Shown here in pieces: positions 1,114 to 1,620 of a stretch of 14,607 nucleotides of DNA. The stretch's first letter is position 1, and every line of letters begins with the position of its first letter. This DNA is from an uncultured Muribaculaceae bacterium. GTDB lineage: Bacteria; Bacillota_I; Bacilli_A; RF39; UBA660. The stretch spans positions 1 through 14,607 of the forward strand of contig CAZTUM010000018.1 of assembly GCA_964616645.1 (NCBI GenBank), written 5' to 3'. The notes beneath the pieces were generated by a model, which had not been told where the DNA came from, searched no databases, and saw only the letters and a program-made list of their open reading frames with translations. The position numbers were made by a program, and so were the translations under genes.

Positions 1114-1620
1114 TTGAAGGTAATTTATGTTGAGATAATTTGTAAAAAAAAATCCCAAATAATTCGCAATTATAAAGTCCCAAATAATTCGCAAATCAAC
1201 AATAAGGAGGATAAATTATATGAAAAAACAAACCAACGTTCGTGGGGGGGGGGTACTTTAATAATTAGACAGTCCAGTGGGATTTTCTATGAAGTTAATG
1301 ATAATGATGCAATAATTTTAAATTATTTATTTAATTATAAGATTACTGGTTCTAATAGAGTAGGGTTTCCTAATACTGCATTATCTAAAGTATTAAATAC
1401 TTTAGAAAAAGATAATATAGATTATATTTTATATTATATAAATGGAACAAAAGATGAATACCATAAAGTACCTAATAATTATAATAAAGTATTAACACTT
1501 GCACTTAGTAATTATGATTTTAATAATAAAATAAAAGATATTACTTCTAAAATAAATAAATTAGATAATATTAAATTAAATAATTTATTAAAAATAATCG
1601 AGGATTATTTAAATGAATAA
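1114..1620 (+). CDS. DGR accessory ORF with MutS domain-I-like (mismatch-binding-domain-like) sequence; the native start is probably ATG 1220, which is out of frame as assembled
   Basis: LIIRQSSGIFYEVNDNDAIILNYLFNYKIT...RVGFPNTALSKVLNTLEKDNIDYIL resembles the MutS N-terminus (ILFFRMGDFYELFFEDA...L.ITLT...PMAGVP..A...YI..L...GYKV). The as-assembled ORF needs TTG 1114, which has no RBS. The strong GGAGG (1206-1210) plus ATG 1220 is in the +1 frame and stops at 1259-1261 after the G10 tract. The stop overlaps the avd start. Confidence 0.5.
   Translation: MKVIYVEIICKKKSQIIRNYKVPNNSQINNKEDKLYEKTNQRSWGGGTLIIRQSSGIFYEVNDNDAIILNYLFNYKITGSNRVGFPNTALSKVLNTLEKDNIDYILYYINGTKDEYHKVPNNYNKVLTLALSNYDFNNKIKDITSKINKLDNIKLNNLLKIIEDYLNE
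1153..1194 (+). repeat. Two perfect 17-bp direct repeats, TCCCAAATAATTCGCAA (1153-1169 and 1178-1194), separated by 8 nt
   Basis: The exact duplication is read directly. It sits between the candidate promoter and the GGAGG RBS of the first DGR gene. I saw no further copies on either strand. Confidence 0.9.
1244..1253 (+). repeat. G10 homopolymer (simple-sequence contingency tract) inside the 5' end of the first DGR accessory gene
   Basis: Ten consecutive G counted at 1244-1253 in otherwise very AT-rich DNA. G11 or G8 would fuse ATG 1220 to the long downstream frame. Confidence 0.95.

Follow-up and report, generated by a model that had tools for sequence, protein, structure and literature searches.

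A Guanine Run Within the First Codons of a DGR Accessory Gene

How is the first gene of a diversity-generating retroelement (DGR) read when a run of ten guanines separates its only start codon served by a Shine-Dalgarno (SD) sequence from the rest of its open reading frame (ORF)? The question is raised by contig CAZTUM010000018.1 of an uncultured bacterium (GenBank assembly GCA_964616645.1), analysed here over 14,607 nt of its forward strand (positions 1 to 14,607, hereafter the window; G+C content 24%). The gene encodes a MutS-like (MSL) protein and is the first of a DGR cassette, in an order, MSL–avd–reverse transcriptase (RT), that is common to the window and all related loci. We know of no natural targeted protein hypermutation system in prokaryotes other than DGRs, which are especially dense in the gut microbiome. 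We consider it likely that the run is a slipped-strand contingency switch acting on MSL, which is OFF in this contig.

The layout around the start, all on the forward strand, is the one drawn up in the first-pass annotation of this DNA. The SD sequence GGAGG (1206–1210) lies 9 nt before the ATG start codon (1220–1222), and the G10 homopolymer (1244–1253), the candidate switch, covers codons 9 to 12 of MSL. Read from ATG 1220, the G10 allele specifies the 13-residue peptide MKKQTNVRGGGVL and then stops at TAA (1259–1261); the MSL body, 121 codons and a stop codon (1255–1620), has no in-frame canonical start in this state. Translated in silico with G11, ATG 1220 leads into the body to yield a product of 133 residues (MKKQTNVRGGGGTLIIRQ...LNE), and with G8 into the same protein minus one Gly (132 residues), while the window would still be out of frame with G9. 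The frame that comprises the body (1114–1620) contains one ATG, GTG or TTG codon in all, i.e., TTG 1114–1116, from which the 168-residue product in public annotation (P0001) is called. The earlier claims that G10 uncouples ATG 1220 from the gene body, that G11 or G8 restores the frame and that the body is otherwise reached from TTG 1114 only are thereby borne out. For telling the products apart, the peptide MKKQTNVRGGGGTLIIR is set against the 13-mer MKKQTNVRGGGVL; a locked version of the tract is GGAGGTGGAGGT.

Chance does not account for the G10 tract. No other G or C run in the 14.6-kb window reaches 6 nt; 1.6e-4 G runs of 10 nt or longer are expected there, and GGG is the rarest of its glycine codons (9 of 177 Gly codons, 5%). 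The probability of finding 121 open codons after the shift by chance is 1.4e-6 in the window composition.

The Genuine Start Codon and Its Public Annotation

Close orthologues (60 to 77% identity) begin with MKKQTNVRNGGGTL, MTKKQTNVR[A/V]GG[G/S/D]TL or MKKKTFVRSGGG..., with an N-terminal consensus M(T)KKQTNVR[N/A/V/G]GG[G/S/D]TL, and they keep the same AGGAGG and ATG layout in front of it. Because this N-terminus is shared behind the same AGGAGG, ATG 1220 is the genuine start, as had been proposed; relative to this start, the window allele carries a frameshift. By the same comparison, the NCBI call at TTG 1114 is an annotation artefact of the frameshift, since its N-terminal extension is not conserved.

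Among the relatives, the N-termini proposed by gene callers fall into three classes, one per frame: MKKQT..., the conserved start; MFETGGG... or MFVRGG..., for which a second ATG (within AATGTT, +1 frame) is used; and fragments of 76 or 86 residues or fortuitous upstream starts. The window has AACGTT where the relatives have AATGTT, hence no second ATG, and for this reason G9 would be OFF there as well. Public calls of the MSL gene (P0001 and its relatives P0004 and P0011–P0051) are inconsistent, at 168, 133, 128, 99, 86 and 76 residues, because gene finders pick whichever start fits the current tract length. Public annotation is systematically wrong for this gene (TTG 1114, internal ATGs, fragments), and those who use it would miss the conserved MSL start.

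Length of the G Run in Related Lineages

The first-pass annotation had proposed a comparison of tract lengths amongst relatives. In about 60 gut-metagenome contigs, taken from assemblies in ENA, Logan and NCBI that are independent of one another, we found lengths of G7 to G10, with all three frames common. Related contigs belong to gut metagenome-assembled genomes labelled Bacilli, Tenericutes or Mycoplasmatota bacterium. The G run occupies the same codons in three other lineages (60–77% identical). In lineage 2 (...AAC + Gn + TACTTTAATT), G7 occurs in L038, G8 in L001, L006 and L007, G9 in L002 and L040–L049, G10 in L030–L032, L035–L037 and L039, and a GT-G8 variant in L033 and L034. Lineage 3 includes G7, G8, G9, G10, GA-G8 and G9-AGT. 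The L004/L005 lineage carries G10, where G9 or G12 would be needed to be in frame. G6 and G12 can be deduced from the protein N-termini MFETGGTL and MFETGGGGTL.

The length varies on otherwise identical haplotypes. In 14 contigs from different samples, the sequence downstream of the tract differs at 0–2 positions per 1200 nt, yet the tract reads G9, G10 or GT-G8. An identical hypervariable variable repeat (VR) upstream, VR1, is shared by contigs with G8 (L006), G9 (L043) and G10 (L032, L036 and L039). G8, G9 and G10 are all present on haplotypes that show 0 differences over the 1200 nt and have the same VR1. Runs of A7, A8, T8 and T9 are constant in length in the same alignments, the G run being the only homopolymer with an indel in comparisons over 6.2 kb. 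This length polymorphism on identical flanks was seen in sister lineages of the window's species. Together with a position conserved across a synonymous divergence (dS) of 0.65–1.0, it means that the tract behaves like a slipped-strand switch, as the first-pass annotation had suggested. Amongst the accessions retrieved, we found no sample with two tract states.

Could G10 in the window be a homopolymer sequencing or assembly error, the real genome having G11 (or G8) and an intact MSL? The allele is one base off an in-frame G11 with the rest of the ORF intact. The window's own species is represented by a single contig (P0001 is a cluster of one), which makes its G10 a single observation. Moreover, tract lengths were read in assembled contigs, and the comparative data are short-read metagenome assemblies, in which long G runs are error-prone; many of the related contigs have low coverage (e.g., cov 1.7–5), and assemblies leave room for an error mode specific to G. 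Set against this, dozens of independent assemblies, made in different studies with different assemblers, have G10 or another out-of-frame length, and the A/T runs of 7–9 nt in the same contigs are free of length noise. The same tract states recur across independent assemblies (ten G9 contigs, seven G10 contigs, L004 = L005), with identical sequence also among L030–L032, L035, L036 and L039, which makes random assembly error unlikely as a general explanation. In another clade, tandem 13-nt repeats, which are not subject to the homopolymer error mode, vary at the same position (see below). An error in this contig does not explain the family-wide pattern, and we regard it as quite improbable.

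Two wider scans complete the survey of the poly-G clade. A scan of JGI metagenomes with a clade-specific protein profile found no member of it, and the clade seems to be absent from that collection. In a genome collection that consists of species representatives and does not include the window's own genome, the only close relative was JAEDKN010000063, identical to L002.

Other Repeats at the Same Position

In more distant MSL genes the G run is lacking, and the N-terminus is a MutS-like helix (MKTIDKYLKFKEMY...). The objection that orthologues might lack any repeat tract and use a different start thus fails for the close relatives and applies to the distant ones as far as the G run is concerned; several of the latter have non-triplet repeats of another kind there.

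A 13-nt unit, CAACACAACAATG, directly follows the SD in a clade whose protein shares 43% identity with that of the window; there is an ATG in each unit. Two copies of CAACACAACAATG occur in ten contigs (L080–L089; from about 30 nt before the called start into it, e.g., L080 2480–2530), where the SD-proximal ATG is in frame. Three copies occur in two JGI contigs (L090 9973–10012; L091 1850–1890); there, the frame of the first ATG is not that of the gene and stops after 12 codons. Five and eight copies can be deduced from proteins with a 13-residue periodic N-terminus, MQHNNATQQCNTT. In L017 (1–90), 6.9 copies of a different 13-nt unit, ACAACAACACAGC, abut the MSL core, as do 5.5 copies of an 8-nt unit, ACAACAAC, in L015 (1–44); in either case the repeat runs to the end of the contig. 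A (CAATA)n repeat is suggested for one further clade by the QYNTI periodicity of its protein N-termini. A JGI scan for the 13-nt repeat returned three loci, two of them relevant; the third, L092, was discarded as an unrelated low-complexity repeat.

Over 26 non-redundant loci (206 kb), eight of the nine G or C runs of at least 7 nt or non-triplet tandem repeats are located at the MSL 5′ end. The ninth, and the only one away from an MSL start, is a G8 run (L004 334–341) inside a 36-codon ORF; this ORF sits just upstream of a gene for an 811-residue protein (weak Flg_new_2 match) that precedes MSL.

It is conceivable, at somewhat less than an even chance in our estimation, that repeat-mediated stochastic switching of MSL is a selected, convergently evolved DGR feature in these gut Bacilli/Mycoplasmatota, brought about in one clade by poly-G and in others by repeats of 13 nt, 8 nt and probably 5 nt, located in each case between SD and gene body.

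Selection on MSL and Further Frameshifts

Between lineages, the ratio of nonsynonymous to synonymous divergence (dN/dS) of the MSL body is 0.23–0.28 at a dS of 0.65–1.04, from which we conclude that MSL is kept functional while its frames are scrambled. The G run is uninterrupted across this divergence although GGG makes up 5% of the Gly codons: synonymous divergence of this extent should have broken a run of the rarest Gly codon, and the run survived. The locus thus combines the hallmarks of a contingency gene, i.e., a slippable simple sequence repeat (SSR) in the 5′ coding region, length differences on identical flanks that change the frame, and retention of the repeat beyond neutral expectation.

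Beside the two limits of the data named above (a single contig for the species and short-read assemblies), several points weigh against a switch. In the contigs listed, which are a biased and partial sample in that they were retrieved by protein variant, 35 are in frame with ATG 1220 (or its equivalent), 82 are in the +1 frame and 48 in neither, so that the ON state is the minority state (35 of 165, about 21%). Some relatives have other frameshifts inside MSL, which also fits relaxed selection: in the P0006 cluster, a change from A7 to A8 leads to ...ENKKNRLYF... truncations, and in the P0004 cluster, a 1-nt deletion leads to ...NKDSLTMI. In relatives, too, A6 has become A7 directly after the start codon (ATGACGAAAAAAAC). 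MSL therefore accumulates frameshifts at more than one run; the loci with such further frame-changing length differences are L006/L007, clusters P0006 and P0004, and L061/L062. Any phenotypic consequence of switching MSL is speculative. Finally, the first-pass annotation had tentatively extended the control to avd and RT, a polar effect that is not indicated. The avd gene has an SD sequence of its own, GAGGA (1600–1604), 8 nt before its ATG, and coupling to MSL is therefore not required.

The G run might, then, be a non-adaptive mutational hotspot in a dispensable gene, no more than a fragile Gly-Gly-Gly stretch, its OFF alleles being early pseudogenes of an MSL that is under weak or intermittent selection and has been knocked out time and again. 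The scarcity of in-frame alleles and the additional frameshifts would suit such a history, as would the more distant MSL clades that do without any tract. It is harder to reconcile with the dN/dS of 0.23–0.28, with an ORF that is always intact downstream of the shift, and with a tract that persists despite the rarity of GGG. Different non-triplet repeats, moreover, arose at the same SD-proximal position, to which SSRs are essentially confined in the 206 kb surveyed. On balance, we find a mere hotspot unlikely and prefer a switch.

Recoding as an Alternative to Switching

Out-of-frame alleles need not be silent if the reading frame were corrected during expression. RNA polymerase slippage on the run, or −1 ribosomal frameshifting on G_GGG_GGG, would produce MSL constitutively at a set low level. 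Ten identical bases are long enough for transcriptional slippage in bacteria; on G_GGG_GGG, tRNA-Gly can re-pair perfectly after a −1 shift, the one that the window allele requires; and out-of-frame alleles are the majority. The direction of the shift is, however, not uniform: G10 of the window and of lineage 2 needs −1 (equivalent to +2), whereas G9 of lineage 2 and G10 of lineage 3 and of L004 need +1 (equivalent to −2). In-frame alleles are common, the 13-nt repeats of the other clade could not be corrected by such slippage, the RNA structure around the start is no different from that of shuffled sequences (z = 0.16), and no Rfam family matches the tract site. We hold recoding to be very improbable as an explanation of the locus; it could coexist with switching at the DNA level as leak expression.

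As in programmed frameshift genes (prfB, +1; dnaX, −1), an in-frame stop is closely preceded by a slippery run and a G-rich, SD-like stretch. The tract differs from those genes in that it is without fixed length or consistent shift direction and in that in-frame alleles exist; a fixed slippery site, a single direction and a conserved out-of-frame layout, by which such genes are recognised, were not found. Two specific candidates were rejected. As a main mechanism, programmed −1 frameshifting on the run is at odds with the alleles that need +1 and the many that are in frame. A prfB-like +1 frameshift at CTT TAA would read TTT AAT AAT TAG from CTT and stop, the body being in the −1 frame.

Identity of the MSL Protein

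The window protein on its own has no significant match to Pfam MutS_I (PF01624) and none in NCBIfam, and a profile of seven homologues searched against PDB sequences retrieved MSH6 only at E = 0.49. A profile search recovered 239 relatives, many with precomputed PF01624, and MutS_I individually matches 21 of 43 aligned family members. The AlphaFold2 model of the product of 1255–1617 has a predicted local distance difference test (pLDDT) score of 95.9. The top PDB matches of this model in Foldseek are all domain I of MutS, MSH6 or MSH3 (probability 1.0, E 0.01–0.1), with a root-mean-square deviation of 1.5–2.7 Å over 58–67 residues. The body is thus modelled as a MutS domain-I fold followed by two long helices, and the MutS-like character claimed in the first-pass annotation stands. 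In MutS, the Phe of the F-x-E motif is the aromatic residue that stacks on the mismatch. Its position aligns with an invariant Phe of the family (F23 or F11 in two alignments), the window motif being F-Y-E.

On the strength of this predicted fold, we assign the gene to the known MSL family of DGR accessory proteins, described by Wu et al. 2018 (PMC5758913) and named Msl in Bacteroides DGRs (10.1101/2024.11.15.621889). As in that family, the window gene is a small ORF (112–283 residues in the survey) that adjoins avd and RT in a DGR cassette and is co-present with avd. It deviates in falling below Pfam MutS_I significance when taken alone, and in having MKKQTNVR and a Gly run in place of the N-terminal helix (MKTIDKYLKFKEMY...) of other members.

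Proposed Mechanism and Its Consequences for the DGR

In the switch that we favour, replication slippage by the polymerase would add or remove Gs at a hypermutable SSR, and the tract length would set the frame between ATG 1220, the only SD-served start, and the MSL body. G8 and G11 would give full-length MSL (ON), while with G10, initiation at the canonical start would produce the 13-residue peptide instead of MSL (OFF); the window allele would be one G insertion away from ON. By analogy with established contingency loci, we infer that switching would be frequent and reversible within populations and would alter the MSL protein level.

The level of MSL would tune DGR output rather than abolish it, MSL plausibly shielding the heavily mismatched heteroduplex of cDNA and VR from mismatch repair. 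In B. ovatus, DGR mutagenesis is reduced 5–10 fold by MutS/mismatch repair, and tight regulation is a feature of those Bacteroides DGRs that carry Msl (10.1101/2024.11.15.621889); from these two observations, MSL may modulate the survival of mutagenised cDNA against mismatch repair. The restraints on DGRs reported so far are transcriptional differences and MutS antagonism (10.1101/2024.11.15.621889). A slippage-prone on/off repeat on MSL would, if true, add a new layer of DGR control that is heritable and at the same time reversible. A contingency locus would then set, cell by cell, how efficiently hypermutation writes variants, one mutator being under the control of another. Should MSL block mismatch repair, the ON state would destabilise its own repeat, and the burst of diversification would be self-limiting. 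In public metagenomes, strains isogenic in all else would offer MSL alleles that are naturally ON or OFF, which would make the function of MSL directly testable by relating tract state to VR turnover.

Relation to Known Switches

Poly-G/C contingency loci of AT-rich bacteria have runs of 8–12 nt that change by single units among near-identical strains, the frame deciding between ON and OFF, and their tracts are kept despite codon bias. With those of the Campylobacter jejuni phasome and of Neisseria, Haemophilus and Helicobacter, the MSL gene shares a G run in the first codons of an ORF in AT-rich DNA. With few exceptions, such switches are known to target surface structures, restriction-modification methyltransferases or phage receptors, whereas the MSL tract sits in the gene for a factor that acts inside the cell as an accessory to targeted hypermutation. 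The host differs, too, as an uncultured gut lineage, Bacilli/Mycoplasmatota-like, in which switching is proposed from sequence.

In Bacteroides, where DGRs are either quiescent or constitutive, there is likewise DGR activity that is not constitutive, and elements with Msl are tightly controlled. Control there is transcriptional and responsive; that proposed for MSL would be stochastic, genetic and exerted on the translation of one accessory protein. A literature search returned no paper that links DGRs with repeat-mediated switching or describes repeat control of MSL. Phase variation by SSRs and MSL are each already known; their combination would, on the comparisons made here, be new.

The DGR Cassette and Its Surroundings

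The cassette is that of a genuine DGR. Downstream of MSL, on the forward strand, the gene taken as avd (1613–1957) is bAvd-like; its ATG overlaps the MSL stop by 8 nt. Its matches to bAvd (E = 1.2e-4) and DivGenRetAVD (E = 1.2e-5) are both below the curated cut-offs, its position and size are typical, and the orthologous genes of relatives carry PF22296. The RT gene (1947–3032), in which YMDD is present, matches RVT_1 at E = 2.3e-11. It is followed by the template repeat (TR; 3058–3149); the VR (4623–4714) lies near the 3′ end of the target gene (3560–4798), an ORF for 412 residues with an N-terminal membrane helix. All 16 mismatches between TR and VR are at TR adenines, which tells us that the element has been active.

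A near-perfect inverted repeat of 42 nt (TATACGGTTAATGTGGAAGGATATCTTCCCATTAGCCGTATA; 4806–4847) begins 8 nt after the target gene stop, in the same position as the hairpin/cruciform downstream of VRs in other DGRs. A small ORF without family match (3310–3651, forward strand, 113 residues) lies between TR and target and overlaps the target start; an ORF of 96–111 residues is present at the same place in all related cassettes. This small ORF may represent an additional conserved element of the DGR, or else the 5′ portion of the target operon.

Upstream of MSL, a consensus scan identified a promoter-like site on the forward strand, TTGTCA-17 nt-TATCAT with TG before the −10 hexamer (1051–1079; 10/12 matches), a candidate promoter of the MSL–avd–RT operon; promoter-like sites are no more numerous in the region than in shuffles. 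Between this site and the MSL SD, the 5′ leader includes two exact 17-nt direct repeats, TCCCAAATAATTCGCAA (1153–1169 and 1178–1194, forward strand), 25 nt apart, where 0.09 are expected. They are absent from the relatives examined, whose MSL follows the VR hairpin directly, and are possibly operator-like.

The sister lineages (L030–L049) have a second DGR target gene immediately upstream of MSL. It encodes 571 residues and has its own VR, about 190 to 100 nt before a GC-rich hairpin, AGGCTTGGAGCAATATGCTCCAGCC. The VR sequence of this gene varies from sample to sample, and the VR boundary is precisely where many Logan contigs break off, suggesting VR heterogeneity within samples and, hence, an active DGR. 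We considered whether the tract could be part of a DGR cis element, i.e., the initiation of mutagenic homing (IMH) site or the GC-rich hairpin, and discarded this: in the relatives, the hairpin after VR1 is about 90 nt upstream of the tract, and the window is without an upstream VR. In L051 (1–5870), two DGR cassettes occur in tandem (avd–RT–small ORF–target, then MSL–avd–RT–small ORF–target).

In place of the second target gene, the window carries a gene for an AAA_22 ATPase, ExeA- or TniB-like (197–775, forward strand, possibly starting before position 1; PF13401, E = 2e-10; TIGR03015, E = 3e-30), which adjoins the DGR and is followed by an ORF of 73 residues (769–990). They may belong to a mobile element that took the place of the target gene found upstream in the relatives. 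Farther downstream, Rfam RF00029 (group II intron) matches 12532–12633 on the forward strand (60.5 bits, E = 5e-10) over the region of domains V/VI; an ORF for an intron-encoded RT is not evident upstream of it, and the match may mark either the remnant of an intron or an intron without an ORF. The remaining window is chromosomal, with rpsP-like, D-Ala-D-Ala ligase-like and RuvA-like ORFs.

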